A stretch of DNA of 23,278 nt, taken from a virus. Lineage: Duplodnaviria > Heunggongvirae > Uroviricota > Caudoviricetes. Where the stretch lies: the IMG/VR virus record IMGVR_UViG_2718218100_000005, one strand, 5' to 3'. Of this stretch, positions 1,541 through 17,003 are shown piece after piece (the first letter of the stretch is position 1; each line of letters starts with the position of its first letter). The position numbers were made by a program, and so were the translations under genes. The notes under the pieces are model-generated. The model did not search any database. It saw only the letters and a list, made by a program, of their open reading frames with translations, and was not told where the DNA came from.

Positions 1541-1822
1541 ATGCGATGTGGTTTATTAATGGCAATCTGCCTTTGTTTAGTATCTTTTAGTGGATATGCA
1601 GCAACAGGAAAGTCTGATGCTCAGATCAAAAAAGAAATAATTAAAGAATCCATTGAATCTTATCCAGGCAATTGTGCGTGTCCTTATAATCATGCAAGGA
1701 ATGGTAGTAGATGTGGTGGACGCAGTGCATATAGCCGTAATGGAGGGTATGACGTGGTATGTTATGAGGGTGATGTTACCGATGAAATGATCCGGCAATG
1801 GAAGCAGGAGAATGCTGAGTAA
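1541..1822 (+). CDS. small secreted Cys-rich hypothetical protein (predicted signal peptide)
   Basis: Sub-ORF of 1427..1822 starting at MRCGLLMAICLCLVSFSGYAA (hydrophobic signal-like N-terminus), mature part with 6 Cys (GNCACPYNH...RCGG...VVCYEG); AT-rich surroundings; start codon choice uncertain (alternatives 1427, 1559). Confidence 0.45.
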   Translation: MRCGLLMAICLCLVSFSGYAATGKSDAQIKKEIIKESIESYPGNCACPYNHARNGSRCGGRSAYSRNGGYDVVCYEGDVTDEMIRQWKQENAE

Positions 1823-1861
1823 TCTCTTTTAACAGGTTTGTTGTGCGAGCATTATGTGCCG

Positions 1862-1945
1862 TTAACGGTTCACATCCCGAAAATCTGCGCTTCTGGCTGA
1901 AAGCCTGTCCGGTGGTCCTTCGTGAGCGATTTCATCAACAATGTA
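1862..1945 (-). pseudogene. continuation of the gpD-like gene on the other side of IS30, ending after 27 codons
   Basis: After removing IS30 plus one copy of the AG duplication the gpD frame continues in phase as YIVDEIAHEGPPDRLSARSADFRDVNR-stop; gpD-like similarity stops near 1862, implying a deletion of the remaining approx 300 codons. Confidence 0.5.
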
Positions 1946-2005
1946 AGTGTAGATTCAATTGGTCAACGCAACAGTTATGTGAAAACATGGGGTTGCGGAG
2001 GTTTG

Positions 2006-3018
2006 GAACTATGGAAGAACGGAACAGGCTTCAGTGAAATAGCGAATATCCTGGGTTCAAAACCCGGAACGATCTTCACTATGTTAAGGGATACTGGCGG
2101 CATAAAACCCCATGAGCGTAAGCGGGCTGTAGCTCACCTGACACTGTCTGAGCGCGAGGAGATACGAGCTGGTTTGTCAGCCAAAATGAGCATTCGTGCG
2201 ATAGCTACTGCGCTGAATCGCAGTCCTTCGACGATCTCACGTGAAGTTCAGCGTAATCGGGGCAGACGCTATTACAAAGCTGTTGATGCTAATAACCGAG
2301 CCAACAGAATGGCGAAAAGGCCAAAACCGTGCTTACTGGATCAAAATTTACCATTGCGAAAGCTTGTTCTGGAAAAGCTGGAGATGAAATGGTCTCCAGA
2401 GCAAATATCAGGATGGTTAAGGCGAACAAAACCACGTCAAAAAACGCTGCGAATATCACCTGAGACAATTTATAAAACGCTGTACTTTCGTAGCCGTGAA
2501 GCGCTACACCACCTGAATATACAGCATCTGCGACGGTCGCATAGCCTTCGCCATGGCAGGCGTCATACCCGCAAAGGCGAAAGAGGTACGATTAACATAG
2601 TGAACGGAACACCAATTCACGAACGTTCCCGAAATATCGATAACAGACGCTCTCTAGGGCATTGGGAGGGCGATTTAGTCTCAGGTACAAAAAACTCTCA
2701 TATAGCCACACTTGTAGACCGAAAATCACGTTATACGATCATCCTCAGACTCAGGGGCAAAGATTCTGTCTCAGTAAATCAGGCTCTTACCGACAAATTC
2801 CTGAGTTTACCGTCAGAACTCAGAAAATCACTGACATGGGACAGAGGAATGGAACTGGCCAGACATCTAGAATTTACTGTCAGCACCGGCGTTAAAGTTT
2901 ACTTCTGCGATCCTCAGAGTCCTTGGCAGCGGGGAACAAATGAGAACACAAATGGGCTAATTCGGCAGTACTTTCCTAAAAAGACATGTCTTGCCCAATA
3001 TACTCAACATGAACTAGA
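2006..3018 (+). pseudogene. IS30 transposase (InsI-like), 5' and 3' disrupted
   Basis: ORF 1922..3058 matches IS30 transposase from ELWKNGTGFSEIANILGS... to ...AQYTQHEL; N-terminus upstream of ELWK is read-through of the terminal repeat (no native start), 3' end runs into the IS629 terminus at 3019. Confidence 0.85.
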
Positions 3019-3060
3019 TGAACCGCCCCGGGTTTCCTGGAGAGTGTTTTATCTGTGAAC

Positions 3061-3951
3061 TCAGGCTGCCAGATCATCGTTTCCGATGGAAGCATAATAA
3101 GCTTTTTCTGCTTCTGCCGGAGGAGTATGGCCCAGCCTTCCCAGCAATCGTCGATTGTTATACCAGTCCACCCACGTTAGTGTGGCCAGTTCCACTTCTG
3201 CACGGTTTTTCCAGCTCTTACGGTGTATTACCTCCGCTTTGTAAAGACCATTGATGCTCTCAGCCATCGCGTTGTCATACGAGTCGCCTGTACTCCCTGT
3301 TGATGCCAGTAATCCGGCTTCTTTTAGTCGCTCCGTATAGGCCAGTGACACATACTGAGAGCCTTTATCGCTGTGATGGATGGTGCCAGACGGACGACGG
3401 GCCCACAACGCCTGCTCCAGCGCATCCAGCACGAATGTCGTTTCCATAGACGATGAGACCCGCCACCCCACGATGTATCCGGCAAACACATCAATGATAA
3501 ACGCCACATAGACGAAGCCCTGCCATGTGCTGACGTAAGTAAAATCAGCCACCCACAGCTGGTCAGGTCGTTCTGCCACGAACTGACGGTTTACGCGGTC
3601 GCCTGCGGCAACGGCTTTCCGGCTGATGGTCGTACGGACCTTTTTACCCCGGAGAACACCGGCAAGTCCCATAACCGCCATGAGACGTGCCACTGTACAT
3701 CTGGCCACCCTGATTCCTTCCCGTAACAACTGACGCCAGACTTTACGCACACCGTACACCTGATGATTTTCATCGTATACGCGCTGTATCTCTCTCTTCA
3801 GCCAGTCGTCGTGCTGCGCACGGGCACTGCGTTTATCCGGATGATGTCGCTGTTGCTGACAATGGTAATACGTTGACGGGGCAATATGCAGTTCGCTGCA
3901 TACCGGTCCGACCCCGTACTGCTCACGCAGCTTATCCAGCAGTGGCATCAT
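3061..3951 (-). CDS. IS3-family transposase OrfB (DDE integrase-like catalytic domain)
   Basis: 296-aa ORF overlapping orfA by ATGA; contains DDE-type motifs ([30 protein letters not shown]); probably expressed as OrfAB fusion by frameshift. Confidence 0.85.
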
Positions 3952-4274
3952 TTTTTCCAGAGGCGGTCGAACTCCGCCTTCGCAAAATAAGCGGAAGCCT
4001 GGCGAAGGATATCGTTACTGCGGCGCAGTTCACGATTTTCACGTTCCAGCTCTTTCAGACGCTGACGTTCAGCGCTGGTGAGCCCACCATCACCGCCCCC
4101 GGTATCCCGCTCATGCTGGCGAACCCAGACACGCAGAGTCTCCGGCGTACAGCCAATCTTTGGGGCAATGGAACAAATTGCCGCCCACTGTGAGTCATAT
4201 TCATCCTGACTTTCCAGAACCATACGAATCGCCCGCTGACGGACTTCGGGGGAAAAACGAGTATTTTTAGTCAT
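3948..4274 (-). CDS. IS3-family transposase OrfA (HTH)
   Basis: 108-aa [54 protein letters not shown]...; leucine-zipper-like C-terminus; typical IS629 OrfA. Confidence 0.85.
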
Positions 4275-4329
4275 CCTGTTTACCTCTTTCTCAGGGAGTT
4301 TAGTCTCCAGGATTTCCGGGGCGGTTCAA

Positions 4330-4428
4330 GATCTGGTTGCTGCTCAGCTAAACAACAGACCGAGAAAGACACTGAAGTTCAAAACACCGAAAGAGATAAT
4401 TGAAAGGGGTGTTGCATTGACAGATTGA
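4330..4428 (+). pseudogene. IS30 transposase 3' segment displaced by the IS629 insertion
   Basis: Translation DLVAAQLNNRPRKTLKFKTPKEIIERGVALTD-stop continues the transposase reading frame broken at 3018. Confidence 0.8.
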
Positions 4429-4435
4429 ATCTACA

Positions 4436-4702
4436 AGTGCCTTTTTCTGTCAGCGGTTCTCCTTTCCAGCCAATGAGAACCGTCAGGCGCGCGCCCCGTG
4501 GCGGTAGCTGCAACTGACCATCTGCATCATCCAGCGTGATGGTGAGCTGGTCCGCCTCAAATCCCCGGTTGTCGGTCAGTGACAGGCTCATCAGGCGCTC
4601 TGCCACGCCTGACAGCGTTTTACCCTCCGCGAGAATATCAAAATCCGGCACTTTCACGTGGTCTGTGCCCTGACTGAGCAATTGCATGGTGGTGTCGGTC
4701 AT
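4436..4702 (-). pseudogene. P2 gpD-like tail protein, N-terminal fragment cut by IS30
   Basis: Minus-strand translation MTDTTMQLLSQGTDHVKVPDFDILAEGKTLSGVAERLMSLSLTDNRGFEADQLTITLDDADGQLQLPPRGARLTVLIGWKG...; resembles the conserved N-terminus of phage late control gene D/gpD tail proteins; SD GGGAGGG upstream; frame enters IS30 at 4435. Confidence 0.65.
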
Positions 4703-4859
4703 CTGTTCCCTCCCTGTGCGGCATGGTCGCATGTGCGTGCGGAGGGGGTTACTGCTTTTTGTTGTCGCCGTGGCGGGAGAACGGCGCAGGGGTGAGATTA
4801 CGCGCGTGGTGGGTGATGATTGTTGCCGAATCATTTAACGGATACAAGGGGCTGAAGCT

Positions 4860-6044
4860 ATGAGTGAAACTCGTTTTCATGGTGCCCGTGTTACGGAAAG
4901 TACCGACCTGGTAACAGCGATTAATGATGTTGATTCCAGTGTTATCGGTATCGTGGCAACGGCAGATGATGCGGACGCGGAGCTGTTCCCGCTGAACAAG
5001 CCCACACTGCTGACCCGCGTCAATGACGTGCTGGGAAAATGCGGGACTACGGGGACGCTTTATCGTGCGCTTAAGGCTATCGCAGACCAGGTGAGCACAA
5101 AAGTGATCGTCGTTCGCGTGGCTGAACACAAAGAAGAAGGCGGTAAGACGCAGGATCAACTGGTTATCGGTGGTTCTGAATCTGACGGCAGCTATACGGG
5201 GATGTATGCGCTGCTTGTTGCAGAGCAGGATGAAAGCATCGGATACCGTCCGCGTATTCTGGCCGCGCCGGAGCTGGACACGGAGGCGGTAACAAAATCC
5301 CTGTGCGTGATTGCGGGTAAACTGCGCGCGTTTGTGTATGCCACATGTCATGGTTGTAACACGATGGCTGAGGCGATTACCTACCGCCAGAAATTCAACG
5401 AACGTGAGGTGATGCTCTTATGGCCTGACTTCATCGCCTACAACCTGAAAAGTGGCAAAAACGAAACGTTCCCCGCGCCTGCTTATGCGTGCGGCCTTCG
5501 TGCGTACATTGACCATGAGCAGGGCTGGCACAAATCGCTGTCCAACGTTCCGGTTAAAAATGTGCTTGGGATGTCGAGGCATGTGTTCTGGTCGTTGCAG
5601 GCCGAAGACAGTGATGCCAACAGCCTCAACAACAAAGAAATCACGACCATTATTCGTCGCAACGGGTTCCGCTTCTGGGGCAACCGCACACCGGAAACGA
5701 ACGCCTACATCTTTGAGGTGTATACCCGAACCGCACAGGTGCTGGCTGATTCAATTGCGGAAGCGCAGTTTGAAACCATCGACAGTCCACTGACACCTGC
5801 GAACGTGAAGGATGTTATCAGTGCCATCAGGGCAAAACTGGATTCACTGGTTACTGCCGGGAAACTGATTGGCGCGGAGTGCTGGTATGACATCGAGGAT
5901 AACAGCACCACGAATTTACGTCAGGGGCGTGTGCGTATTCGCTACAAATATACGCCCGTTCCTCCGCTGGAAGACATGGAGCTTTACCAGTCGTTTACTG
6001 ATGAATTCTTTGGTCCCGCATTTGCGGTGCTGGGAGGTGCCTGA
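4860..6044 (+). CDS. contractile tail sheath protein (P2 gpFI family)
   Basis: 394-aa ORF; blocks typical of P2 FI sheath (DADAELFPLNKP, QGWHKSLSNV, RRNGFRFWGNRT, YTPVPPLE); RBS AAGGGG 8 nt upstream; stop overlaps next start (ATGA-type coupling at 6042-6046). Confidence 0.9.
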   Translation: MSETRFHGARVTESTDLVTAINDVDSSVIGIVATADDADAELFPLNKPTLLTRVNDVLGKCGTTGTLYRALKAIADQVSTKVIVVRVAEHKEEGGKTQDQLVIGGSESDGSYTGMYALLVAEQDESIGYRPRILAAPELDTEAVTKSLCVIAGKLRAFVYATCHGCNTMAEAITYRQKFNEREVMLLWPDFIAYNLKSGKNETFPAPAYACGLRAYIDHEQGWHKSLSNVPVKNVLGMSRHVFWSLQAEDSDANSLNNKEITTIIRRNGFRFWGNRTPETNAYIFEVYTRTAQVLADSIAEAQFETIDSPLTPANVKDVISAIRAKLDSLVTAGKLIGAECWYDIEDNSTTNLRQGRVRIRYKYTPVPPLEDMELYQSFTDEFFGPAFAVLGGA

Positions 6045-6556
6045 TGGCTGTACCAAAACATCTTCGCTTTTTTACGCTGTTTGTGGATGGTGAAAACGAA
6101 GTGGGTAAGGTGACGTCCGTCACCCTGCCTAAACTGACGCGCAAAACCGACAGCTACCGGGGTGGTGGCATGATGGGTGCGGTAAGTATTGACCTCGGCC
6201 TGGACGACTCCGCGCTTGATGCGAGCTTTGTCATGGGGGGCGCAGTTCGTGAGCTGTTCCTGAAGTATGGCGGCACGATTGACGGCACGCTACTGCGTTT
6301 TGCGGGGGAATACTACACCGATGATGAAAGCGACCTGTATGAAGTCGAAATGCGCGGACGTGTGACGGAAATTGATATGGGGGAAGCCAAACAGGGCGAA
6401 GCCACATCACACACTTACGCCATTAAAAACACCTACTACAAGCTGAGTGTTAACGATCGCCCGTTGTGGGAGATTGACCTGCTGAACTTCATTTACCGGA
6501 AGGACGGCAAGGACATTGTGCCCGATCGCATCCGTTCCGCGCTTGGGCTTGGCTGA
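6044..6556 (+). CDS. tail tube protein (P2 gpFII family)
   Basis: 170-aa ORF immediately after the sheath gene; LPKLTRKTDSYRGGGM motif as in P2 FII. Confidence 0.85.
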   Translation: MAVPKHLRFFTLFVDGENEVGKVTSVTLPKLTRKTDSYRGGGMMGAVSIDLGLDDSALDASFVMGGAVRELFLKYGGTIDGTLLRFAGEYYTDDESDLYEVEMRGRVTEIDMGEAKQGEATSHTYAIKNTYYKLSVNDRPLWEIDLLNFIYRKDGKDIVPDRIRSALGLG

Positions 6557-6610
6557 TAAGTAATATGCAGGCGGCGCAGTGCGTCGCCTCTGACTGAAAG
6601 GAGTTTCCTG

Positions 6611-6976
6611 ATGAAAGAGACGAAAAACATCGATACCGAAAACACGGTAGTTACTGACACTGTGAAAGAAACCAGTGAGCGTGGTGTAAAACTTACCCAA
6701 CCAATTGAGCGAGGCGGCGAAAAAATCACGTATGTGGAGATCACCGGGGCTATTGAGCAGGCTGGATCTCTGCGAGATTTGTCGCTGTCTGATGTGCTGA
6801 ATCTGAAAGCGGAATCCATGTTTACGCTGCTGTCACGCGTGACATCACCGCGACTGGATGAAGTGACGATCAAAAAAATGGCATCCCGTGACTTTATTCA
6901 GTTATGTGTGGTTGCCGTAAATTTTTTGAGCGGTGCGGACTCTGGCGGGAAGAACGAACAGGCGACGGAAGCCTGA
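6611..6976 (+). CDS. tail assembly chaperone (P2 gpE-like)
   Basis: 121-aa ORF between tube and tape measure genes with SD AAAGGAG; contains slippery heptamer T_TTT_TTG in frame at 6922-6928. Confidence 0.7.
   Translation: MKETKNIDTENTVVTDTVKETSERGVKLTQPIERGGEKITYVEITGAIEQAGSLRDLSLSDVLNLKAESMFTLLSRVTSPRLDEVTIKKMASRDFIQLCVVAVNFLSGADSGGKNEQATEA
6922..6928 (+). other. programmed -1 ribosomal frameshift site (TTTTTTG) producing E+E' fusion
   Basis: Heptamer positioned as X_XXY_YYZ in the E frame; the -1 frame is open from here to 7140 and ends just inside the tape measure gene, the arrangement conserved in P2 E/E' and lambda G/GT. Confidence 0.7.
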
Positions 6977-7140
6977 TCACGGTTGTGTGCTTTGAGCACA
7001 TAGAAGACTTTGTGGCAGATATTGCCGTTATTTTTAACTGGTCGCCCGCCGAAATCTTCATGATGACGCCCGGCGAAGTGGTTAGCTGGCGTGAGCGGGC
7101 GGCACTTCGCAGCGGGAATGCAGACAATGAAGACTCTTGA
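6928..7140 (+). CDS. E' extension (-1 frame) of the tail chaperone
   Basis: 71 codons open in the -1 frame (ERCGLWREERTGDGSLITVV...RERAALRSGNADNEDS) reachable only by frameshifting at 6922-6928. Confidence 0.65.
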   Translation, partial: ERCGLWREERTGDGSLITVVCFEHIEDFVADIAVIFNWSPAEIFMMTPGEVVSWRERAALRSGNADNEDS

Positions 7141-9930
7141 TATCCGGGTCGCTTTCAGCGCCGTTGACAGGCTGACCCGACCTGCCGAAAACGCACGCCG
7201 CCTGATGGGGCAGTTTGGTGACTCCATCCAGCGAACGCAGGGGGCGATCAAAAATCTCGAGCGTCAGGCGCGATCATTTGAGCGCGCCCGCGACGCTGTC
7301 AGTAAAGCGGATGCTGGCATCGTGAAAGCACGACGCCAGCTTAACGCCCTTAATCAGTTACAACGCACGGGTACAGTGCTCAGCGAAAAACAACAAAAGC
7401 TGATGCAGCAGTTAAGCACCCGGCTTGAACGCCTGAATGAATCGCGCACACGGGAAATTCAGAAAATGAGGGAACTTGGCGGAGAGCTGAAACGCCACGG
7501 CATTTCCCTGACAGGCAGCGATAACACCATTCAGCAGGCCATCAGACGCACCGAACAATACAACAACCAGCTTGAACGCGAACGGCAGGCGCTTGCGCGT
7601 GTAACGCAGGCGCGTGAGCGGTATTCGCACGCGCAGGAAACCGCGGGAAAACTGAAAACAGGTGGTGCGCTGGCAATTGGTGCGGCAGCGGCGGGCGGCT
7701 ATGCTGCCGGGCGTTTTTTGCAGCCTGCGATCGGGTTCGGCAAAGAGATGTCCCGCGTTCAGGCACTGACGCGAATCGACAAAAACAGCCCGCAGTTTAA
7801 GGCGCTGCGTGAGCAGGCGTTAAAACTTGCTGAAACACAGTTTACTGCGAGTGATGCCGCCAGTGGGCAGAGCTTTCTGGCAATGGCTGGTTTTACTCCG
7901 CAGGCCATTCAGGCCGCATTGCCCGGTGTTCTTAATATGGCGCTGGCAGGTGGCGTCGAACTCGGCGAGACGGCTGATATAGGCTCCAATATCCTCACAC
8001 AGTTCAACCTGACAGCCGATCAAATGGACCGGGTGGGCGATACGCTGACAGCAGCATTTACCCGGACCAATACTGATTTACGCGCGCTGGGCGAAACCAT
8101 GAAGTATACCGGTCCGGTTGCCGCAAAACTTGGTATCAGTCTTGAAGAAGCGGCGGCCATGGCCGGGATGCTTGCCAATAATGGTCTTCGCGGAAGCGAT
8201 GCTGGCACGGCCATGCGCGCAAGTCTGTCCCGCCTTGCATCACCGCCAAAAGCTGCGGCTGATGCACTGAAAGAGCTGGGGGTGTCAGTTGCTGACGCCA
8301 GAGGCAAAATGCGCCCGATGGAGGATGTGCTGCTTGATCTCTATAAGGCGACACAAAAATACGGACAGGTGGACCAGGTCTCCTTCTTCAAGGACATCGC
8401 CGGAGAAGAGGCGTTCGTTGGTTTGCAGACGCTTGTTGCGGCGGCTGGTTCAGGAGAGCTGCAAAAACTGACCAGAGAATTGCAGGGGGCAAGGGGAGAG
8501 GCCGATCGCGTCGCAAAAGTAATGGCTGATAATCTTGATGGGGACCTGAAAAATCTCGACAGCGCATGGGAAGGTCTTCGTATTCGCATCAGTGATCTGG
8601 TTGACGGTCCGCTGCGTTCTGTCACGCAGTGGCTCACGCGGGGGCTTGAAAAAATCACCTCGCTGGCGCAGGCCCATCCGGTACTGACGCGCCAGCTACT
8701 GATAGCAGGCGGTGCGTTGCTGGCAATGACTGCAACGATTGGCTCGTTGTCGCTGGTTATTGGGGTGCTTTACGGGAAGCTGGCCACCCTGCGTCTTGGT
8801 TTTGACATTCTTACCCGGTCAATGAATGTCGTCAGGGTGTTACCTGCGCTATGGGGAATGGTGACGGGTTCCGTTTCTTTACTGGGAGGCGTTATCGGGG
8901 CGTTGTTCAGTCCGGTTGGTCTTATCGTGGCTGCGCTTGCCGGAGCTGCCGTTCTTATCTGGAAATACTGGGATCCTATCAGGGCTTTCTTTGCCGGGGT
9001 GTTCAGCGGGATTATGGAAAGGCTGACCCCGTTGCGCGACACCTTTGAACGGTTTGGCCCTGTTTTTGACGTAATCGGAAGCGGTTCAGCCAGGTGTTTA
9101 ACTGGTTTAAATCGCTGCTGTCACCGATGGAGTCCAGCAAGGAAACGCTGGATAAATGTACCAGTGCTGGCGAGGTATTCGGTAACGTTCTTGGTGGTGC
9201 GTTACAGCTTGTTCTGACGCCTGCAAAAATGTTGCTGGATACGCTGGCGTGGATACTTGAAAAACTCGGTGTGCTTCCGGATGAAGCGGAAAGGGCGCGC
9301 AAGAAAATCGAAGACGCACAACGTGCGGCCATTCTTCAGGACAAGGTTGCTCTGTTTCAGGGAGACATTGCGAAAATCAATCCGCCGAAGTCTGCGGGAA
9401 ATAGCAATGGCACCGGAGATGATAAACCCAAAGACAACAAACCTCTCACAGACAGCAATACCGGCACGCTACGCAGACTCAGCAAAATTGCTGATAACAC
9501 AGGTAAGCTGGTTGATGAGACAAAAAAACGCATTGGCCCCGGCGATATTGTCTTTAAGAACCTGCCCCGCGCACTTGCTGTTCGTGGGGAGTGGCAGGAG
9601 CGGAAGATTGCGCAGGTCAGTAAGCCTGCCCCCGCAATTAATATCACACCCGTGGTCCCGGCTCCGCTGCCTCCGGCGCTGGTCCCTGTTGTTGCGGCCA
9701 GCTCCCGCCCGGTGGTGGAGGCCATACGATCGCCAGTGGCATCAGTTCCTGCAACTTCCCGTAACCGGGAGCCTGTTGCCTCCGGATTTGGCGGTGAAAT
9801 TCATGTTCATCTGCATAACGTTGTTACGCAGAATCCCCGCGAACTGGCGAAACTGGTCGGCGAAATGGTCAGGGCAGAAATGGAACGGCGCGCCCGTGCC
9901 AGGCGTGGCAGTTTTTACGATAAAGATTGA
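7127..9930 (+). pseudogene. tail tape measure protein (P2 gpT-like) with a reading-frame break near 9068-9095
   Basis: Long coiled-coil N-terminal region, Gly/Ala-rich hydrophobic central segments and a C-terminal region, all typical of tape measure proteins; ORF 7091..9217 and ORF 9094..9930 are in different frames and together span one gene-sized unit (length not a multiple of 3). Confidence 0.75.
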
Positions 9931-9942
9931 GGAGTCATGGCC

Positions 9943-10431
9943 ATGATGATGATCTACGGCATGTTTGTTTTTGAGCTGCGCACGTTGCCGCATCAGCAGT
10001 TACAGCAAAACAAAAGCTGGCGACATGTGAAAAATGAACGCGTTAACCGTTCAGCAAGCTGGCAGTATATCGGTGCAGGTGATGATCGCATCGTTCTTTC
10101 TGGTGTTCTTTATCCTGAGATTACTGGTGGCGAAGTGTCGCTGTCGTTGTTGACCACGCAGGCATATACAGGACGTCCTTGGCCTTTGATTGATGGCGTC
10201 GGGCAGATTTACGGCATGTATGTCCTGACCGGAACGAATACGACCCGCTCCGAGTTTGATCGCTACGGTAAGGCGAAAAAGATAGAATTTTCACTGACTC
10301 TTGAACGCTGTGATGAGGATTTGCGGGAGCGCCTGCAATCCTCATCGTTCAGCGATATGCTGTCCGGCTTCAAAGATAAGGTGACATCATCCCTTAATAG
10401 CGCGGCCAGCTCAGTTAAGGGGCTGCTCTGA
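9943..10431 (+). CDS. tail protein (P2 gpU family)
   Basis: ORF 9937..10431; MMMIYGMFVFELRTLPHQQLQ...WRHV...YIGAGDDRIVLSGVLYPEITGG resembles P2 gpU; SD GAGGAG best spaced for ATG at 9943. Confidence 0.8.
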   Translation: MMMIYGMFVFELRTLPHQQLQQNKSWRHVKNERVNRSASWQYIGAGDDRIVLSGVLYPEITGGEVSLSLLTTQAYTGRPWPLIDGVGQIYGMYVLTGTNTTRSEFDRYGKAKKIEFSLTLERCDEDLRERLQSSSFSDMLSGFKDKVTSSLNSAASSVKGLL

Positions 10432-10507
10432 TTTAACGTATGTCGCCAATTTCCTGATGAAGGTGACTGGCGACTTGCTGTTGTATGTCCTTCTCAGAAA
10501 ATTGTTT

Positions 10508-10536
10508 TTGAATAACAAATAACAGGATTTTATAAT
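10508..10536 (+). promoter_or_regulatory. near-consensus sigma70 promoter (TTGAAT -35, 17-nt spacer, TATAAT -10) for the acetyltransferase cargo gene
   Basis: TTGAAT 10508-10513, TATAAT 10531-10536 in an AT-rich intergenic region. Confidence 0.5.
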
Positions 10537-10587
10537 CTCTTAACCTTATAACATGTGTGGTCTGAAATAATAATTAAGGAGATTATC

Positions 10588-11160
10588 GTGCTATCTTACT
10601 TAATGGCAATTCACTTTGTTTTATTTGGAAACTCTACTAATTTAAAAAACTTCTGGAAACATGAAGTAATTCGGCGGAAACGTATGGATATCTGGAGGCT
10701 TTTAAGAGAGAAAAAGCAGCGTAACCGGAATTTCCTTTTCTGGTGGCGGTTGGCTAACGAAATGTATATTAATGGTAATAAATTACATAAGAAAGCAGCC
10801 AAAAAGTTAAACAGTAAAATAATTAACAAGTTTGGTTGTGAAATAGGATTGGGCGCAAATATTGGAAAAGGGTTGACAATTCCCCATCATGCTGGAATTG
10901 TTGTTCATTTTGCTGTTGATGCGGGTGAAAATCTGGTATTACGACAGAATACTACCATTGGACAGATAGATGGTGATATGCCTAGTTCAAGAGTAAAAAT
11001 TGGTAGTAACGTTGATATCGGAGCTAATTGTTGCATCATTGGATTATCACGTAAAATTGGGGATAATGTAAAAATAGGTGCAATGTCTTTTATAAATAAA
11101 GATATACCATCAAACTGCACATATATAACTAAAAAGAGTGGTGTTGTATTGTATAAATAG
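10588..11160 (+). CDS. hexapeptide-repeat (left-handed beta-helix) acyl/acetyltransferase, serine O-acetyltransferase-like
   Basis: GTG start 7 nt after SD AAGGAGA; tandem hexapeptide repeats (IGLGAN, IGKGLT, IGSNVD, IGANCC, IGLSRK, IGDNVK) and an HHAGIVV...G motif as in CysE/LacA-type transferases; markedly AT-rich versus flanking tail genes. Confidence 0.8.
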   Translation: MLSYLMAIHFVLFGNSTNLKNFWKHEVIRRKRMDIWRLLREKKQRNRNFLFWWRLANEMYINGNKLHKKAAKKLNSKIINKFGCEIGLGANIGKGLTIPHHAGIVVHFAVDAGENLVLRQNTTIGQIDGDMPSSRVKIGSNVDIGANCCIIGLSRKIGDNVKIGAMSFINKDIPSNCTYITKKSGVVLYK

Positions 11161-11170
11161 AGTACATAAA

Positions 11171-11206
11171 GCCATCGATATTTCTGTCGATGGCTTTTTC
11201 TTTTTA
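11171..11206. terminator. rho-independent terminator (8-bp stem GCCATCGA/TCGATGGC plus T run), mainly for the plus-strand acetyltransferase gene
   Basis: Perfect hairpin 11171-11194 followed by TTTTTCTTTTTATT. Confidence 0.7.
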
Positions 11207-11736
11207 TTGTGGGGCGACTGGCCACTCAACATCCGCTGCTACTGTTGTATCAACACGATTCAACAATACCCGATATGTCTTCCATGCAGCCAGTAACGAT
11301 GCCTCTTCCTCCGTCGCAATATCCAAATCTACGGCATCCTGAAGTGGCGCAATATGCTCACTGGCTACCTGCATCAGGCTGTTTTTTGTTTCTTCTGCCT
11401 CCCGTACCCGAAACAGTTTTTCTGCTTCTGCATCTTTCGCCCAGGATGTGCCGTTCCACTTCTGACACTCTCCATCCGGCGACAACCAGGTAACATTTTC
11501 CGGTAACGGACCGAGTTCAGAAATAAATAACGCGTCGCCGGAAGCCACGTCATAAACCGTTTTACCCCGATGATCTTCAACGAGATGCCACGATGCCTCA
11601 TTACTGTTGAAAACAGCCACGAAGCCAGCCGGAATATCTGGCGGTGCAATATCGGTACTGTTTGCTGGCAGACCTGTATGAGGCGGAATGTATGCGTCAC
11701 CTTCACCAATAAATTCATTAGTTCCGGCCAGCAGAT
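11204..11736 (-). pseudogene. tail fibre assembly protein (P2 gpG/Tfa family), 5' end removed by IS629 copy 2
   Basis: Minus-strand frame reads ...[62 protein letters not shown]...[35 protein letters not shown], with the C-terminal motif characteristic of Tfa; open frame runs without start codon up to the IS terminus at 11737. Confidence 0.8.
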
Positions 11737-11790
11737 TGAACCGCCCCGGGAATCCTGGAGACTAAACTCCCTGAGAAAGAGGTAAACAGG

Positions 11791-12117
11791 ATGACTAAAA
11801 ATACACGTTTTTCCCCCGAGGTCCGTCAACGGGCAGTCCGTATGGTTCTGGAAAGTCAGGGCGAATATGACTCACAATGGGCGGCAATTTGTTCCATTGC
11901 CCCAAAGATTGGCTGTACACCAGAGACTCTGCGTGTGTGGGTTCGTCAGCATGAGCGGGATACCGGGGGCGGTGATGGTGGACTCACCACCGCTGAACGT
12001 CAGCGTCTGAAAGAGCTGGAACGTGAAAATCGTGAACTGCGCCGCAGTAACGATATCCTTCGCCAGGCTTCCGCTTATTTTGCGAAGGCGGAGTTCGACC
12101 GCCTCTGGAAAAAATGA
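11791..12117 (+). CDS. IS3-family transposase OrfA
   Basis: 108-aa ORF nearly identical to copy 1 OrfA (differs at a few residues, e.g. AVRMV/QGEYD/LTTAE). Confidence 0.85.
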
Positions 12118-12796
12118 TGCCACTGCTGGATAAGCTGCGTGAGCAGTACGGGGTCGGACCGGTATGCAGCGAACTGCATATTGCCCCGTCAACGTATTAC
12201 CATTGTCAGCAACAGCGACATCATCCGGATAAACGCAGTGCCCGTGCGCAGCACGACGACTGGCTGAAGAGAGAGATACAGCGCGTATACGATGAAAATC
12301 ATCAGGTGTACGGTGTGCGTAAAGTCTGGCGTCAGTTGTTACGGGAAGGAATCAGGGTGGCCAGATGTACAGTGGCACGTCTCATGGCGGTTATGGGACT
12401 TGCCGGTGTTCTCCGGGGTAAAAAGGTCCGTACGACCATCAGCCGGAAAGCCGTTGCCGCAGGCGACCGCGTAAACCGTCAGTTCGTGGCAGAACGACCT
12501 GACCAGCTGTGGGTGGCTGATTTTACTTACGTCAGCACATGGCAGGGCTTCGTCTATGTGGCGTTTATCATTGATGTGTTTGCCGGATACATCGTGGGGT
12601 GGCGGGTCTCATCGTCTATGGAAACGACATTCGTGCTGGATGCACTGGAGCAGGCGTTGTGGGCCCGTCGGCCGTCCGGCACAGTCCATCACAGTGATAA
12701 AGGTTCTCAGTATGTATCACTGGCCTATACGGAGCGACTAAAAGAAGCAAAACTGCTGGCATCAACAGGGAGTACAGGTGACTCGTATGACAATGT
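12114..12796 (+). pseudogene. IS3-family transposase OrfB, 3'-truncated
   Basis: Matches copy 1 OrfB up to ...[11 protein letters not shown] then ends in unrelated sequence (ORF 12114..12806, 230 aa versus 296 aa). Confidence 0.8.
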
Positions 12797-12825: not shown

Positions 12826-13140
12826 TTATTCTGGGAATAAGGTCTGAATATTCTTTTTTATTTTATAAAAATTGCATTCAACTCCGCTAGGCTGATTAGC
12901 CTGGTATGTTTCCTTGATGCTAACGGTATTGAAGGGGAGGTTGTCCTCTGGCCATTCGGCCATCCAGTAGGCAAATGCTGGGTTGCGCTTTATGAGTGCT
13001 AGCCCAGCCAGAAAGGCCGCGCGTTGCGCGCGGCTGCGTTCGGAGGCTGGCAGGCTATCGAGGTAATTGCACGCCTCCTGTTCACTCTTGACGGCGGCGG
13101 GCTTCAGATAGAAACTTATCCGTCTGGTTGGTGTCGTCAT
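12826..13140 (-). CDS. ParR/StbB-like ribbon-helix-helix partition adaptor (possibly C-terminally shortened)
   Basis: 104-aa ORF 4 nt downstream of the parM-like gene; ISFYLKPA...LDSLPASERSRAQRAAFLAGLALI resembles plasmid R1 ParR N-terminal DNA-binding region; 3' end lies in AT-rich DNA next to the IS truncation point. Confidence 0.6.
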   Translation of the reverse strand: MTTPTRRISFYLKPAAVKSEQEACNYLDSLPASERSRAQRAAFLAGLALIKRNPAFAYWMAEWPEDNLPFNTVSIKETYQANQPSGVECNFYKIKKNIQTLFPE

Positions 13141-13144
13141 TGGT

Positions 13145-14104
13145 TTACTCCTTGTTCATTGCGTACAACCCATTAACCAGAGCAAACTGTGGCACCCCGT
13201 CCGCGATGAAAGTCGCATTAACTCCGCAGGCTTCGCGGATAGCGGTTGCCACAATCTCCGCCCCGCCACCGACAACCATCACCCGCCCGTAACCCGAAAA
13301 AACCGCCAGCGCGCGGATCACGCGTTGTTTCAGTGTTTCTTCCTTTTCACGAATAACCGCCATCAGGCTGGCGTAATGCGCGTCATTGTGGATGTGCTGG
13401 CGCAGCCAGGCTTCATCATGGCGATGTTCGATAATGGTATTGGCGATGTGGTGACTGGTGCGCATACCGTTAGTGGCCATCACCGACAGTACGGCATCGG
13501 CCATCAGAGAAACGCCTACGTGTGGATCGCAAAACACCTGGCTGATACCTGCCAGTTGCCCCTGAACCTTTGCCACATCCAGCGTGGTTCCGCCCAAATC
13601 CACAATCAGCAGGGATTCAAACGGACTCATGTCAGCCAGTGCCTTAAAGCCAGCAGGAATGGATTCAGGCATAACCCGTACGTTACGGATAGTGAATGCT
13701 TCGCCGTTCTGGTACTCCACCGGGCGCATGACGTTCGCTTTTTTGCGGTTGATGTTGGCCATGTCCGGCTGTGCGTTTGTATCGAAATACTCGCTCAGTG
13801 GCAGGGTGACAACCACATCCACTTCCTGTGGTGTGATGCCTGATTTGACCAGCGCGTGATGAATGGCAATTACATTCACATCGCTGTACTGGTATTGCGT
13901 GTCGGTCGTCTGGACAAAGCGATCGCTGACCGGATCAAAACCATAGCGCACGCCATCAAGCATGTAGTTCGCGGGCTGCGTGCCACCGAATGGCGCAGAC
14001 CATTCCGACTTGAAGCTGTTCGGGCTGATGGCGTTGCGGCGTTCGCCGTTCTCAGTCCATGCCAGCTTGATGTTGGTGGAGCCGTCGTCGATACAAATTT
14101 TCAT
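13145..14104 (-). CDS. ParM/StbA-like actin-type segregation ATPase
   Basis: 319-aa ORF starting MKICIDDGSTNIKLAW; co-linear similarity to plasmid R1 ParM (ISPNSFK, YSDVNV, HHAL, VMPESIPAG, DLGGTTLD, GVSL, FSGY, GGGAE, LVNG motifs). Confidence 0.8.
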   Translation of the reverse strand: MKICIDDGSTNIKLAWTENGERRNAISPNSFKSEWSAPFGGTQPANYMLDGVRYGFDPVSDRFVQTTDTQYQYSDVNVIAIHHALVKSGITPQEVDVVVTLPLSEYFDTNAQPDMANINRKKANVMRPVEYQNGEAFTIRNVRVMPESIPAGFKALADMSPFESLLIVDLGGTTLDVAKVQGQLAGISQVFCDPHVGVSLMADAVLSVMATNGMRTSHHIANTIIEHRHDEAWLRQHIHNDAHYASLMAVIREKEETLKQRVIRALAVFSGYGRVMVVGGGAEIVATAIREACGVNATFIADGVPQFALVNGLYAMNKE

Positions 14105-14180: not shown

Positions 14181-17003
14181 TCATATATCGCGGCGCGTTT
14201 TTTGCTCATTTACGGGATTTGTGAGTCCCGTTTCTGTCTGTTTTTTGTTTCCACTGGTCAGGCCACCCCGCAGCAGGTCTGCTTTGCGGCTGGCGCGTTC
14301 AGTGGTTTCACTGATTCTCTGTGCGTGCTCTGCGTCGCGGATGGCGCGCAGCATGTCAGAAAGCACGGTAACGGGTGTTTTCATGGTGTTCTGGTCCTGC
14401 TGAAGTGTGGATGCCAGGCGTGCGGCGGCTTCAGGGTCTGATGCCCCCAGCTGTGCCAGATAGCTGGCGACCGGGTTATGGCGGATCTCCGTGCTGCTTA
14501 CGCCATGATTACGGCTCAGGCGCTGCCAGAGCTGCGTGATTCGGCTGTCCGGGCGGGTATCCGGTTTGCGTACAATTTCAAATCCCTGCGGTGCAATGAT
14601 GCTGCCGTCAACGTACAGACTGCCGCCCCGTAACAGGTGCTGCATCTGTTGTTCACCGATATGCAGGCCGAGAGATTCAGCAGACTCCCGCCATTCTTTA
14701 GCGAGTAATTCGTGGTTATCAGGCAAAGGCCGCTGCTGTTTGCGGCTCTGTGTCCAGCTCTGCATTTCATCACTGCTGTTTTTTGCCTGTTTGTCACGAA
14801 GCGAACGCATCAGCGCCCGGCGTTCGTGCCGTTTCAGTGAGCGCATCCATTCGTTCACGTCAACGCCGTCAGGAAGCTGCGGCCACGGTGCTGGCCGTTC
14901 TTCCGGCTGTTCTGTCCCGTTGTTGTCCGTTTCCTGTACACGGGGACAGTTATTGCCACGAGTCCAAGGGGCGGCAGGGCCGCCCTGAAGGTCAAAACCA
15001 TTTTCGCGGGCGCTGTCTTCTACTCCCGGTTTACGTCTTACCAGCTTCCAGTTATCCGGGTGCGTGCACACACGGGAGGATTCCCCGATGAGTGGTGACC
15101 AGATCCCGTAAATCTGTACGCTCTGTTCGCCGTAATCGTTCAGCTCATCTGCGAGGTCGTAGGCGGTGCGAATCAGGTAGTCCTTGCGTGGAACAAGTAC
15201 GCCTCCCTGTTTCTCAATGTAGGTGGTAAAACATCCGGCATCAGCGGCAGCAAGAACCGCATCCATTGCGTCATCCTTCAGCCGTTGCGGGCCTTCCGGG
15301 TTGCGTGCCATCTGGCTGGCAAGGCGACGCAGTTCACGCCACACCTGACGGGAGGGGATGCCAAAGAACTGGAACTGGCGGACCCGGTGAAGGCGCGCCC
15401 AGCCAATGGCGCGTTCCACGCTCTCGGTCATTGATTTTCCGGTTTCGTGGTCAACGCGTGGTTTGCCTGTTTTCGGGTCGATGCCATCCACGGCGCGGCT
15501 GTCCAGGTTTTTTCCGATGTAGGTGGCGATGTAGCTGGTTGGCGTGCCTTTTGAGCCGTCGACATACTCCGCCTTAAAGCGCGGAGTAATATCATCGCCC
15601 AGCTCGTGACGATCTTCCTGAATGGCAATATCGCGGGTGTGGGACACAATGGTGTCGATTTCTTCCGGATGAGCAAAGACCATCATATGCCAGTGCACGG
15701 TGCCGTCATGGTGAGGCTCCACCGTGCGGATGCCATACCAGCGCAGGCCGTCGCGGTTCAGTTTCTTGCGGACCGCCGCAAAAAACGTGTTAACCAGGTA
15801 ATCGCTGGAGTCGCGCATGGTGGCCCCGTTCCATTTGGGATTCGGATGACCGTTCTCTGTTGTAGCGTGGTATTTTGACGGGCAGGTGACAGTCAGAAAC
15901 ACCGCTTTGTCGCCACGGGCTTCGGCCAGAAGTTCCAGCCCCTTCATGGTGGCCATCATTTCTGCCTTACGGTGAACCGGGTTACTTACTCCCGCGTAAT
16001 ACACTGTCTCGAGATCAATCGTGAACCCGTCTTCGTTTTCCAGCATGAAACTTTTCAGGAAATCGCGTGTTTTCTCGCGCTGTGCGCGAAACTCGCTTAA
16101 CGCGTCCTGGCTCAGATAGGGCGATGTTTTTCTGGAAACCAGACAGGCGGCGCGGAGTTGTTCTTCTCTCCACTCGCAACGTAACAGCCACAGTTTGCGT
16201 TTCCACCATTCCGCACAGGTCAGGCGAAGGATTGCGCCCGGCAGCAGCTCCGTGTCCGGTTCGTTCCTCCGGTCTTTGTCTGTTGTCAGTGCGTCATAAT
16301 GTGGAGGCATGGCGTGCAGGTGTAACGCCATGCGGGCCAGCATCTGATACGCCTTCAGCGTTACATCCATGGTCAGTTCGCCATCGGTCGCGCCAAAGCC
16401 ATCGCAGAGTTTTTCGAAGGTGCTGCTGAACATCGCCGCCGTCATGGTGGCCAGCGTCTGTATCTGGTGTTTGTTGAGCTGCGGCAGGTAAAGCAAATCG
16501 TCCAGGCGTTCGCGTCCGGCAAGGGAGCGATAACCCTGTGTCAGCCAGCGGTGATCGGTGCGCTCCAGACGTTCGAATATTTTGCGCAGGTTTCCGCGCG
16601 CGTAGCGTTCAGCCTGCCAGCTCTTTTTGCCTTTCTGACGATCGGCTTCCTGTTTTTTGCGCAGGAAGGAGAGGTGGCGAATAAGCGGATCGCGCAGATA
16701 GGACGGCAGCAGGCGCAGCGAGGCCATGGCTTCATCCACCGCACCGCGTGCCTGTTTTCTGGCGTCTCCTGCCAGTGTGATGGTTTTGTCCTGTTTTTCC
16801 TGTGCGTCCAGGCTTTTATTAATCAGGTTGCCCAGCGGCGTTGCGGAGAACGCCGCATCAGCCATTTCCTGGCGGCGCTCGTTCTCTACCCGGTAGGCAT
16901 CCAGCCAGGAGGAAAGCGCGGATTCAGGAGCGGGGATCCCCGTTCCTTCACGCCCCACTGCGTGGCGCGGTTGTTGCCAGTCCCTGATGTACTCTGCCGT
17001 CAT
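14181..17003 (-). CDS. rolling-circle replication initiator endonuclease (P2 gpA family)
   Basis: 940-aa ORF with HUH-type motif (GTVHWHMMVF) and tyrosine motif (TSYIATYIGKN) typical of P2/186 gene A proteins. Confidence 0.85.
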   Translation of the reverse strand: MTAEYIRDWQQPRHAVGREGTGIPAPESALSSWLDAYRVENERRQEMADAAFSATPLGNLINKSLDAQEKQDKTITLAGDARKQARGAVDEAMASLRLLPSYLRDPLIRHLSFLRKKQEADRQKGKKSWQAERYARGNLRKIFERLERTDHRWLTQGYRSLAGRERLDDLLYLPQLNKHQIQTLATMTAAMFSSTFEKLCDGFGATDGELTMDVTLKAYQMLARMALHLHAMPPHYDALTTDKDRRNEPDTELLPGAILRLTCAEWWKRKLWLLRCEWREEQLRAACLVSRKTSPYLSQDALSEFRAQREKTRDFLKSFMLENEDGFTIDLETVYYAGVSNPVHRKAEMMATMKGLELLAEARGDKAVFLTVTCPSKYHATTENGHPNPKWNGATMRDSSDYLVNTFFAAVRKKLNRDGLRWYGIRTVEPHHDGTVHWHMMVFAHPEEIDTIVSHTRDIAIQEDRHELGDDITPRFKAEYVDGSKGTPTSYIATYIGKNLDSRAVDGIDPKTGKPRVDHETGKSMTESVERAIGWARLHRVRQFQFFGIPSRQVWRELRRLASQMARNPEGPQRLKDDAMDAVLAAADAGCFTTYIEKQGGVLVPRKDYLIRTAYDLADELNDYGEQSVQIYGIWSPLIGESSRVCTHPDNWKLVRRKPGVEDSARENGFDLQGGPAAPWTRGNNCPRVQETDNNGTEQPEERPAPWPQLPDGVDVNEWMRSLKRHERRALMRSLRDKQAKNSSDEMQSWTQSRKQQRPLPDNHELLAKEWRESAESLGLHIGEQQMQHLLRGGSLYVDGSIIAPQGFEIVRKPDTRPDSRITQLWQRLSRNHGVSSTEIRHNPVASYLAQLGASDPEAAARLASTLQQDQNTMKTPVTVLSDMLRAIRDAEHAQRISETTERASRKADLLRGGLTSGNKKQTETGLTNPVNEQKTRRDI

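Follow-up and report, generated by a model that had tools for sequence, protein, structure and literature searches.

The P2-like prophage at the leuZ-yecA locus

The stretch of DNA analyzed here (23,278 nucleotides, called the window below) matches Escherichia coli O157:H7 chromosomes at 100%. It is the leuZ-yecA locus of that organism, with the decayed P88-like (P2-like, Peduoviridae) prophage Sp13, and the Sakai annotation at the matching locus reads "prophage Sp13, P2-like" (NC_002695.2). The left boundary of the prophage is an attachment repeat (positions 948 to 1068, no strand assigned) that overlaps the 3' end of the tRNA-Leu gene leuZ (916 to 1002, RefSeq annotation), and a second 121-nt copy of this repeat, 99% identical, lies just past the integrase gene in strains LSU61, 4276, and Sakai. 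The characters that place the element among the P2-like/P88-like Peduoviridae are an integrase, a C/Cox switch, the replication endonuclease A, the bounding att repeats, and P2-type tail genes in the order of the family. Sp13, which is without most morphogenetic genes, still excises and replicates (PMC2669165).

The residual tail module (4860 to 10431, plus strand, RefSeq annotation) consists of the sheath gene FI (4860 to 6044), the tube gene FII (6044 to 6556), tail genes E (6611 to 6976) and E' (6985 to 7140), the tape measure gene T (7127 to 9930), which is frameshifted by the loss of one G near 9082 relative to LSU61, and tail gene U (9943 to 10431). The module is 92% identical to that of phage P884B11 and keeps that phage's native order. 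With P2 as the model, the FI-U block could be taken as inverted relative to gene D and tfa, but we rejected this interpretation because the order is native to P88-like phages and because LSU61 has the same order without any IS. The P88-like phages (Xuanwuvirus, e.g., P884B11 and 520873) and the LSU61 prophage have the gene order of the window, carry FI-U on the strand opposite D as the window does, and share its replication, parMR, and integrase modules. In P884B11 and 520873, as in other P88-like phages, a DNA invertase and an invertible fiber segment lie between U and tfa, whereas the O157 prophage has a serine O-acetyltransferase-like accessory gene (10588 to 11160, plus strand) in place of that region. 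The adjoining tail fiber assembly gene tfa (11204 to 11736, minus strand, Pfam Caudo_TAP) belongs to a type that also occurs in a P1-like phage and has lost its first 46 nt; it is intact, at 579 bp, in LSU61 and in phage Ro157c2YLVW.

Tail gene D survives as two minus-strand pieces separated by an IS30. One is an internal fragment (1873 to 1947), recognized by blastn to gene D of P884B11 and to LSU61; the other, recognized by blastn to P884B11, is the 5' fragment with the first 89 codons (4436 to 4702), which RefSeq labels "late control D, missing C-terminus." The IS30 (1948 to 4435, plus strand) has both terminal inverted repeats and a 2-bp target duplication, AG, at 1946 to 1947 and 4436 to 4437, and the uninterrupted gene D of P884B11 confirms the insertion site. 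In the window, this IS30 is itself split into 1948 to 3018 and 4332 to 4435 by a copy of IS629, while it is unbroken in strains 114, Z1834, 7636, DEC4E, and Sakai. At this end of the prophage, a 3.3-kb deletion with its junction at 1872|1873 (blastn against LSU61) removed the 3' part of D, a yecA-like gene, ogr, and hok/gef.

The two IS629 copies

The IS629 within IS30 (copy 1) is a complete, IS1203-like (subtype I) element of 1,310 bp, with base-level boundaries at 3019 to 4328 on the minus strand. Both of its imperfect terminal inverted repeats can be read (the element starts TGAACCGCCCCGG), and it is flanked by a 3-bp target duplication, AGA, at 3016 to 3018 and 4329 to 4331, across which the IS30 sequence is continuous in strain 114. 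Translation gives overlapping orfA (4274 to 3948) and orfB (3951 to 3061), both on the minus strand, the former with a helix-turn-helix and the latter with Pfam HTH_21 and rve matches and the DD(35)E Glu kept. The HTH_Tnp_1 match was scored on orfA of the second copy, from which that of copy 1 differs by two residues. RefSeq describes copy 1 as [quoted passage not shown] the frameshift being of the -1 type, and annotates a pseudoknot. Copy 1 thus has every structural character of IS629/IS1203 (IS3 family), including the length of ~1,310 bp and a target duplication of 3 to 4 bp. It is 100% identical to copy 1 of strain F6667, and nt 14 is the one position at which it differs from the canonical copy of strain 4276.

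In all, 65 complete genomes share the junction of copy 1. The element is missing from Sakai, 114, DEC4E, and 7636, all of which carry the second IS629 copy and the large deletion described below. Copy 1 lies in IS30 as a simple insertion with its own target duplication, and four deletion-bearing strains are without it; we conclude that it is a later, independent insertion that had no role in the deletion. Three independent IS629 insertions are found within this one IS30, in identical orientation and two of them 11 bp apart. In TW14359, a subtype-III-like IS629 lies at window position 2146, away from the copy 1 site (3018). Two IS629 sites have been catalogued in Sp13, IS.14 and IS.33 (PMC3271280), and of these IS.33, as catalogued for TW14359/EC4115, appears to represent an insertion distinct from copy 1.

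The second copy (copy 2; 11737 to 12793, plus strand, 1,057 bp) consists of IS nt 1 to 1057 only. Its intact left inverted repeat adjoins the truncated tfa at 11736/11737. Similarity to IS629/IS1203 is 95 to 97% over these nucleotides and stops at nt 1057; the remaining 253 bp (nt 1058 to 1310) are missing, and the right inverted repeat with them, which leaves the element one terminal repeat instead of two. Its OrfB ends in GDSYDNVFY and a stop codon, four residues short of the DD(35)E Glu, the one in the AMAES motif, which leaves the DD(35)E transposase incomplete. Having neither a right inverted repeat nor the catalytic Glu in its transposase, copy 2 is an immobile scar. It is annotated in Sakai as "IS1203 family: IS3 partial."

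A repeat search of the window returned one inverted pair, 3272 to 4329 against 11736 to 12793 (1,058 nt, 97%), and a match of this kind cannot be chance. The 1,058th base of the match is a coincidental flank match. A sequence-only reading of the window had proposed two IS629-like copies in inverted orientation around the tail module, the first complete and on the minus strand, the second truncated in the 3' part of orfB, with an intact left terminus in the 5' end of tfa. The repeat search and base-level boundaries, the pairwise comparison of the copies, and the comparison with LSU61 bear this out, with the coordinates of the copies correct to within 1 to 3 bases.

The 16.4-kb deletion at copy 2

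Strain LSU61 (O157:H7) carries an intact isogenic prophage at the same site. It shares the U, acetyltransferase, and ParR proteins with the window, while its ParM and replication endonuclease have different accessions, i.e., are allelic. Window positions 11736 and 12794 correspond to positions 3608 and 20009 of the LSU61 sequence (L011), which means that 16,400 bp, or 21 genes, are missing from the window. The lost DNA is contiguous with the insertion point in tfa and comprises the tfa 5' end, a macro-domain gene, the genes for tail fiber, baseplate, tail completion, lysis, head, terminase, and portal, and two small genes. From 12794 onward the sequence is again that of the phage, with a 32-nt spacer between this point and the stop codon of parR (12826 to 13140, minus strand), which is followed by parM (13145 to 14104, minus strand). 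The comparison with LSU61 therefore agrees with the sequence-only reading that head, baseplate, fiber, and lysis genes are gone and that prophage DNA resumes at parR/parM, but the loss of about 20 kb given there is too high: 16,400 bp are missing at copy 2, and the 3.3-kb deletion at the other end is a separate one.

That reading had also called the loss an IS-adjacent deletion, and this holds in part. The missing DNA does extend contiguously from the insertion site, but the junction (12793|12794) falls within the IS, at nt 1057, rather than at an intact IS end, with a microhomology of 0 to 1 nt. A simple adjacent deletion made by transposase leaves the IS whole. Because the junction is within the IS and has at most 1 nt of microhomology, at least one step of the deletion history was not anchored on an IS end. 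O157 carries IEE, an IS-excision enhancer that promotes excision of IS629 and deletions flanking it; IS629-associated deletions are a recognized source of polymorphism in O157, and in the models for IEE either one IS end attacks a wrong site or a strand switch is guided by microhomology (10.1101/2023.06.07.543989). The products of IEE end at an IS end or at a microhomology, whereas the window junction is at neither.

Copy 2 and both of its junctions are present in 263 complete genomes. Strains 493/89, PV15-279, and F3113 have an uninterrupted tfa and extra bases in the parR flank, and the O55:H7 strain DEC5B has an uninterrupted tfa (only tfa was seen there). Eight genomes, of which strain 4276 is an example, have a full-length IS629 at the copy 2 site, with its intact right end abutting the 8 bases tgttggta, after which the sequence continues as in the window from 12794 onward. 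These 8 bases are LSU61 sequence, and the window-type junction therefore cannot be ancestral to the 4276 type. One or two inversions between the copies, a nested insertion, or gene conversion would not turn the window type into the 4276 type, as none of these accounts for the 8 additional phage bases, for which the window offers no template. That eight genomes have a full-length IS629 abutting 8 more bases of phage DNA suggests a two-step history, in which a deletion anchored on an IS end was followed by a small truncation, and the distance of only 8 bp between the endpoints favors common descent of the two types.

The 4276 type is nevertheless not a simple ancestor of the window type, because it has 4 bp less of tfa, its IS is of the canonical rather than the divergent subtype, and its left side is rearranged, with a full-length divergent IS adjoining an 11- to 15-bp IS629 fragment. 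A shared mdfA mutation groups 4276-type strains (2149, Gim1-1, NE92) with window-type strains (F6667, DEC4E, 7636) (PMC10758439), which conflicts with a relic status of the 4276 type if Sp13 has not passed from strain to strain. SNPs within the prophage give no informative sites for the 4276 type, the differences being either private or between LSU61 and the rest. Searches among the genomes did not find an IS in tfa with the remaining prophage intact, or a full-length divergent IS flanked by agat and tgttggta.

A single illegitimate deletion of 16.65 kb, starting at IS nt 1058, ending 32 nt past parR, and made without transposase, would leave the 4276 type as an independent event. The position of the junction within the IS, its 0 to 1 nt of microhomology, and the failure to find a full-length divergent-subtype intermediate fit such an event, and independent origins explain the reported clustering of 4276-type with window-type strains as well as descent does. 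However, two independent 16.4-kb deletions would then end 8 bp apart on one side and 4 bp apart on the other, and with random endpoints the right-end coincidence alone is expected roughly once in a thousand; we consider a one-step origin unlikely. RecA-dependent recombination between an IS629 in tfa and a directly repeated one immediately past parR, with the resulting hybrid then truncated by a small deletion, is rather improbable as well. It would leave one IS without a target duplication, as is seen in strain 4276, differing crossover points could give both the canonical 4276-type and the divergent window-type products, and IS629 insertion hot spots are tight here (three insertions in one IS30). 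On the other hand, none of the genomes listed has an IS629 past parR with the remainder of the prophage intact, and the 4-bp difference on the tfa side is left unexplained.

Based on these comparisons, we favor, at a probability of roughly 0.8, an account in which an IS629 in tfa was followed by the 16.4-kb loss and the truncation and later, without connection, by copy 1. An IS629-family element would have inserted 46 nt into tfa of an intact prophage of ~38.6 kb, after which 16.4 kb would have been lost between the IS and a point 32 to 40 nt beyond parR, and the element would also have lost its last 253 bp, and with them its right inverted repeat and the catalytic Glu codon for its transposase. 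In the order that we infer and prefer, a deletion anchored on the intact right IS end, the product of either aberrant transposition or recombination between the IS and another copy in direct orientation, would have come first, and a small deletion of ~261 bp would then have removed the IS 3' end and 8 bp of flank. Copy 1 would have inserted later and separately, with its 3-bp target duplication, into the IS30 already present in gene D.

The mosaic center of copy 2 and the inverted pair

Two IS629 subtypes, which differ by 55 to 60 bp, are known in O157 (PMC3271280). Copy 2 of the window is a mosaic of the two: IS nt 380 to 869 match copy 1, and the remainder is of the divergent subtype. The 30 differences between the copies are confined to IS nt 14 to 254 and 908 to 1043, with nt 255 to 907 identical, and the identity of the pair is 97%, compared with a usual 95.3%. 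Sakai Sp13 is like the window in its leuZ-yecA locus, gene set, 1,057-bp partial IS, IS30 in gene D, and frameshifted tape measure gene; it is unlike the window in that only the window has copy 1 in IS30 and 20 canonical bases in the middle of copy 2. This central patch either arose by gene conversion or is an artefact of the assembly.

Consensus building or polishing with reads from the ~20 canonical IS629 copies could have overwritten the divergent interior, which would give both the 97% and the patch, and we put this possibility at somewhat short of even odds. Copy 2 exactly as it stands in the window is found in no genome of the collection, the patch is interior (>250 bp and >150 bp from the unique flanks), and two differences private to the window, both in G runs (8643 and 20814), suggest an imperfect consensus. 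In contrast, CEC96047 has nearly the same patch (380 to 854) beside a fully divergent interior in another IS629 of the same assembly, and copy 2 of F6667 has a two-site patch (720 and 761) that 2571 and F6321 may share, their copy 2 score (98.2%) being equal to that of F6667. Patches also occur in Z1834 and PNUSAE146743, strains without any copy 1. The idea that the patch tracks the presence of copy 1 was rejected, since most copy 1 genomes (e.g., FDAARGOS_293 and F6667) are unconverted at copy 2 and there are patched strains without copy 1. We regard it as possible, but doubtful, that exchange among IS629 copies has been recurrent at this locus (independent conversion tracts in copy 2 of at least five strains) and that the eight 4276-type genomes are a separate Sp13 line from the end-anchored intermediate.

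The sequence-only reading had further named the inverted pair as a substrate for recombination that would flip the tail segment. In principle the pair could recombine, as RecA-dependent recombination requires no site-specific invertase, but a synthetic IS30-IS629-tfa junction, representing the inversion isomer, was found in 0 of the 65 complete genomes with the pair, so that the segment occurs among these isolates in a single orientation. Two inversions with different crossovers would also produce a mosaic like the canonical patch at IS nt 380 to 869. That the patch is the product of two such reciprocal crossovers, in a segment flipped back and forth, is very improbable, given that copy 1 has no reciprocal divergent patch, that patched strains without copy 1 exist, and that the inversion junction is absent from all 65 genomes.

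The two IS copies flank a 7.4-kb segment, as in a composite transposon able to move the tail module, and the likelihood of this is close to nil. Copy 2 has neither an outer (right) end nor a functional transposase, the insertions differ in age and subtype, and the segment was seen nowhere but in its native place within the prophage. The outer flanks of the pair are IS30 and the parR spacer, with no duplication around the unit, and copy 1 has a duplication of its own. We conclude that the tail genes came to lie between inverted IS copies by accident, through two insertions that differ in age and occurred independently.

The IS pair and the deletion in Sp13 are ordinary genome decay that is already annotated, the partial IS included, and the IS629 sites in Sp13 are already published; the significance beyond O157 genomics is little. 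As the mosaic of copy 2 warns, gene conversion or mis-polishing may affect the IS copies of finished genomes. If the 4276 type is indeed a separate line, then, given its reported place amid window-type strains, the excisable Sp13 remnant would need to have passed between O157 strains or to have been rebuilt through IS-mediated flips and deletions of the tail segment. The outcome of this work is a base-exact account of the loss of virion genes from Sp13, with LSU61, PV15-279, F3113, and 493/89 identified as carriers of an uninterrupted tfa and parR flank; for LSU61, the status of intact ancestor was checked in full. Lineage markers for IS629-based typing could be drawn from the site of copy 1, from the insertions nested in IS30, and from the variants of copy 2.

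Locus and structure of the two IS629 copies

E. coli O157:H7 chromosomes contain the window at 100% identity; in the RefSeq annotation of one of them, it starts with pgsA and the tRNA genes glyW-cysT-leuZ and ends at the integrase gene of a phage, adjoining yecA. The Sakai record labels the same interval "prophage Sp13, P2-like phage." A 121-nt repeat (948-1068), which overlaps the leuZ 3' end and has its second copy beyond the integrase gene, marks the att sites. The nearest phages are the P88-like Peduoviridae Xuanwuvirus P884B11 and phage 520873 (90 to 97% identity, 39 to 55% of the window covered). Sp13 is without most morphogenetic genes, yet it is excisable and replicates (Asadulghani et al. 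2009, PMC2669165). The Sakai record already contains the partial IS and the IS30 as features, and the arrangement is an ordinary one that was known before. Among the O157 loci compared, only two differences, at 8643 and 20814, are private to the window; both lengthen a G run (GGGTG to GGGGG and GG to GGG), and such changes suggest minor errors in the consensus of the source assembly.

The window contains a single inverted repeat (1058 nt, 97% identity), and reading of its ends base by base bears out the sequence-only reading that there are two inverted IS629-like copies and that copy 2 is truncated. The interpretation given there holds in broad terms and needs correcting on three points: how much was lost, what part copy 1 played, and the simple adjacent-deletion mechanism. 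Copy 1 (3019-4328, minus strand) is 1310 bp long, with both terminal inverted repeats, the direct repeat AGA on its flanks, and an intact orfB. Copy 2 (11737-12793, plus strand) consists of IS nt 1 to 1057. Its similarity to IS629 stops abruptly past nt 1057. From base 12794, which is 32 nt downstream of the parR stop codon, the window continues with sequence that runs unbroken in intact phages. Pfam matches confirm the presence of HTH and rve domains. The copy 2 orfB ends with GDSYDNVFY and a stop, four residues before the Glu that we take, from the known IS3-family DD(35)E spacing, to be the third catalytic residue. Because its right end is missing and its orfB stops short of this Glu, copy 2 has no active transposase and is immobile.

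Extent of the deletions relative to strain LSU61

In O157:H7 strain LSU61, this prophage occupies the same site, but its tfa contains no IS. The U, acetyltransferase, and ParR proteins of LSU61 are identical to those of the window; for ParM and the replication endonuclease, the accessions differ. The LSU61 tfa-parR interval contains a complete gene set: a macro-domain protein, the tail fibre, I, J, W, V, S, R, lysis genes, X, L, M, N, O, P, Q, and two small genes. In the alignment, window positions 11736 and 12794 correspond to LSU61 positions 3608 and 20009 (locus L011). In place of 16,400 bp, comprising 21 genes and the first 46 nt of tfa, the window has 1057 bp of IS. The proposed loss of structural and lysis genes at copy 2 is upheld by this comparison, at 16,400 bp and not at the suggested size of about 20 kb. 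An uninterrupted tfa is also found in 493/89, PV15-279, F3113, and O55:H7 DEC5B, and the first three have the extra parR-flank bases without a preceding IS629 right end. Since LSU61 is intact and these other strains have an uninterrupted tfa or parR flank, the loss took place within the O157:H7 lineage.

A further deletion, at the other end of the prophage, spans 3,322 bp (LSU61 locus L016, 7686-11007) and includes hok/gef, ogr, a yecA-like gene, and the 3' portion of D; its junction (between 1872 and 1873) lies within the short imperfect repeat GTTAACGGT / GTTTAACGTT. The tape measure gene (7127-9930) has a 1-nt deletion at about 9082 relative to LSU61 that causes a frameshift and is common to the window, Sakai, strain 114, FDAARGOS_293, all window-type strains, and 4276. 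Because this gene is frameshifted, the IS-bracketed tail module is itself non-functional. Inversion of the tail block relative to D and tfa was considered and rejected; the gene order is native to P88-like phages and is also that of LSU61. Between U and tfa, other P88-like phages have a DNA invertase and an invertible fibre segment, whereas the window prophage has an acetyltransferase-like gene and a tfa there (10438-11736). This tfa and those of the P1-like phage vB_EcoM-Ro157c2YLVW share 91.5% identity, a likeness that points to an exchange of modules across phage families.

Origin of the copy 2 junction and its mosaic interior

On the left, copy 2 ends at a point of insertion within tfa; on the right, its junction with phage DNA falls within the IS and shares one base at most. 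The right junction does not fit the simple adjacent deletion that had been suggested; a classical transposase-made adjacent deletion leaves the IS whole. IEE-associated deletions are anchored at an IS end or at microhomology (review, 10.1101/2023.06.07.543989), but the window junction has neither.

In eight genomes of a second type (4276, 9234, 2159, 2149, 1130, Gim1-1, NE92, and NCCP 13918), the copy 2 site is occupied by a full-length IS629 with its right inverted repeat abutting tgttggta, followed by window 12794 onward. Because these 8 bases are the exact LSU61 sequence and have no template in the window, the 4276 type cannot descend from the window-type junction. Four tfa bases (agat) that are kept in the window are missing from the 4276 type. 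The simplest common ancestor would have a whole IS flanked by agat and tgttggta. It would represent an IS-end-anchored 16.4-kb deletion, produced through either aberrant transposition or recombination with another IS copy in direct orientation. From that ancestor, the window type would arise by further loss of 253 bp of the IS and 8 bp of flank. We infer this order, an IS-end-anchored deletion and then a small truncation; no intermediate was found among the genomes of the collection.

O157 strains have two IS629 subtypes, 55 to 60 bp apart (PMC3271280), in agreement with the 57 differences that we find between full-length canonical and divergent elements. The 4276 type is rearranged (strain 4276 locus L009, reverse complement, 6339-7659 and 14597-15913), with a canonical IS629 on the right and a full-length divergent IS629 on the left. 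The latter is identical in 4276 to copy 2 over nt 1 to 1057 and joins window 1732 to an 11- to 15-bp IS629 fragment (IS nt 1115-1101) and window 4796, with GGTG/ATTAC microhomology where the fragment meets window 4796; window 1733-4795 is lost. The 4276 type could not be derived from the window type. A published tree groups three 4276-type strains with window-type strains by a shared mdfA mutation (PMC10758439), and SNPs of the locus give no resolution of this placement.

Copies 1 and 2 of the window have 30 differences, all in IS nt 14 to 254 and 908 to 1043. Fifty sites separate copy 2 from copy 1 (95.3% identity) in Sakai, strain 114, FDAARGOS_293, and most others, and at the 20 extra sites (IS nt 380 to 869; window 12116-12605) the window has the canonical base of copy 1 where the Sakai type has the divergent one. 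Copy 2 patches also occur in CEC96047 (nt 380 to 854), Z1834 (nt 830 to 869), PNUSAE146743 (nt 380 to 517), and F6667 (nt 720 to 761). They are independent of copy 1, since Z1834 and PNUSAE146743 have patches and no copy 1, and window copy 1 has no reciprocal patch. If real, the patches result from non-reciprocal gene conversion, with any of the roughly 20 canonical copies as donor, and not from a double crossover. For the mosaic in the window, an artefact of assembly has to be considered seriously as well: the exact copy 2 of the window is in no genome of the collection, and the window's only private differences are both in G runs. Against an artefact stands the CEC96047 assembly, in which the interior of another IS629 copy is still divergent throughout. 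The patches stem either from gene conversion between IS629 copies or from errors in the consensus.

Copy 1, the inverted pair, and the IS30 in gene D

Tail gene D is in two adjacent pieces (1873-1947 and 4436-4702) parted by an IS30 (1948-4435), which has both inverted repeats and a 2-bp duplication (AG) and contains copy 1. Based on the AGA duplication and on the IS30 sequence of strain 114, which is continuous across the AGA site, copy 1 is a simple insertion. Sakai, strain 114, Z1834, PNUSAE146743, 7636, and DEC4E have copy 2 and the deletion and lack copy 1, and the window IS30-IS629 junction is present in 65 complete genomes compared with 263 for both copy 2 junctions. For these reasons, copy 1 is younger than copy 2 and played no part in the deletion.

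A search with a synthetic junction specific to the inverted arrangement (the left part of IS30, a whole IS629, and reverse-complemented tfa) found no genome with >74% coverage except the eight of the 4276 type and two unrelated loci, all of them starting at the IS. The tail segment is inverted in 0 of the 65 finished genomes with the IS629 pair, and the flipping envisaged for it was thus not seen in this set. P884B11 and 520873 carry a site-specific invertase, but the window locus has none.

Two IS629 sites, IS.14 and IS.33, are listed for Sp13 (Rump et al. 2011, PMC3271280). IS.14, found in all four genomes compared there, is evidently copy 2, and IS.33, reported in EC4115 and TW14359, is taken to be the TW14359 insertion at window 2146, in the same IS30 and not at the copy 1 site. 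Since IS.14 and IS.33 are accounted for in this way, the copy 1 site, present in 65 RefSeq genomes, is not in the published list.

This one IS30 copy has received three independent IS629-family insertions, all on the minus strand: at window 3018 (canonical subtype, duplication AGA), 11 bp left of window 3018 in CEC96047 (divergent, CAAC), and at window 2146 in TW14359 (divergent, CTG). The CEC96047 and TW14359 elements (L015 909-2218; L019 1548-2857) are mutually identical. The IS30 in gene D is a local hot spot for IS629 insertion. Without IS629 and the duplication, it comprises 1,175 bp (1948-3018 plus 4332-4435) with both inverted repeats; the strain 114 IS30 encodes a 378-aa transposase, and the Sakai label is "IS30 partial." At the exact IS30 insertion point (window 1947/4436; L016 about 11085-11100), LSU61 has GTAAG-TGTAG-TTTCTG, compared with GTAAGTGCCTTTTTCTG in P884B11. 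IS30 begins with the 5 nt TGTAG, and the site has lost 8 bases of flank, so that this stretch of LSU61 gene D looks like the scar of an imprecise IS30 excision. If it is a true excision scar, the IS30 in D would predate the split from LSU61, and D would be damaged in LSU61 too.
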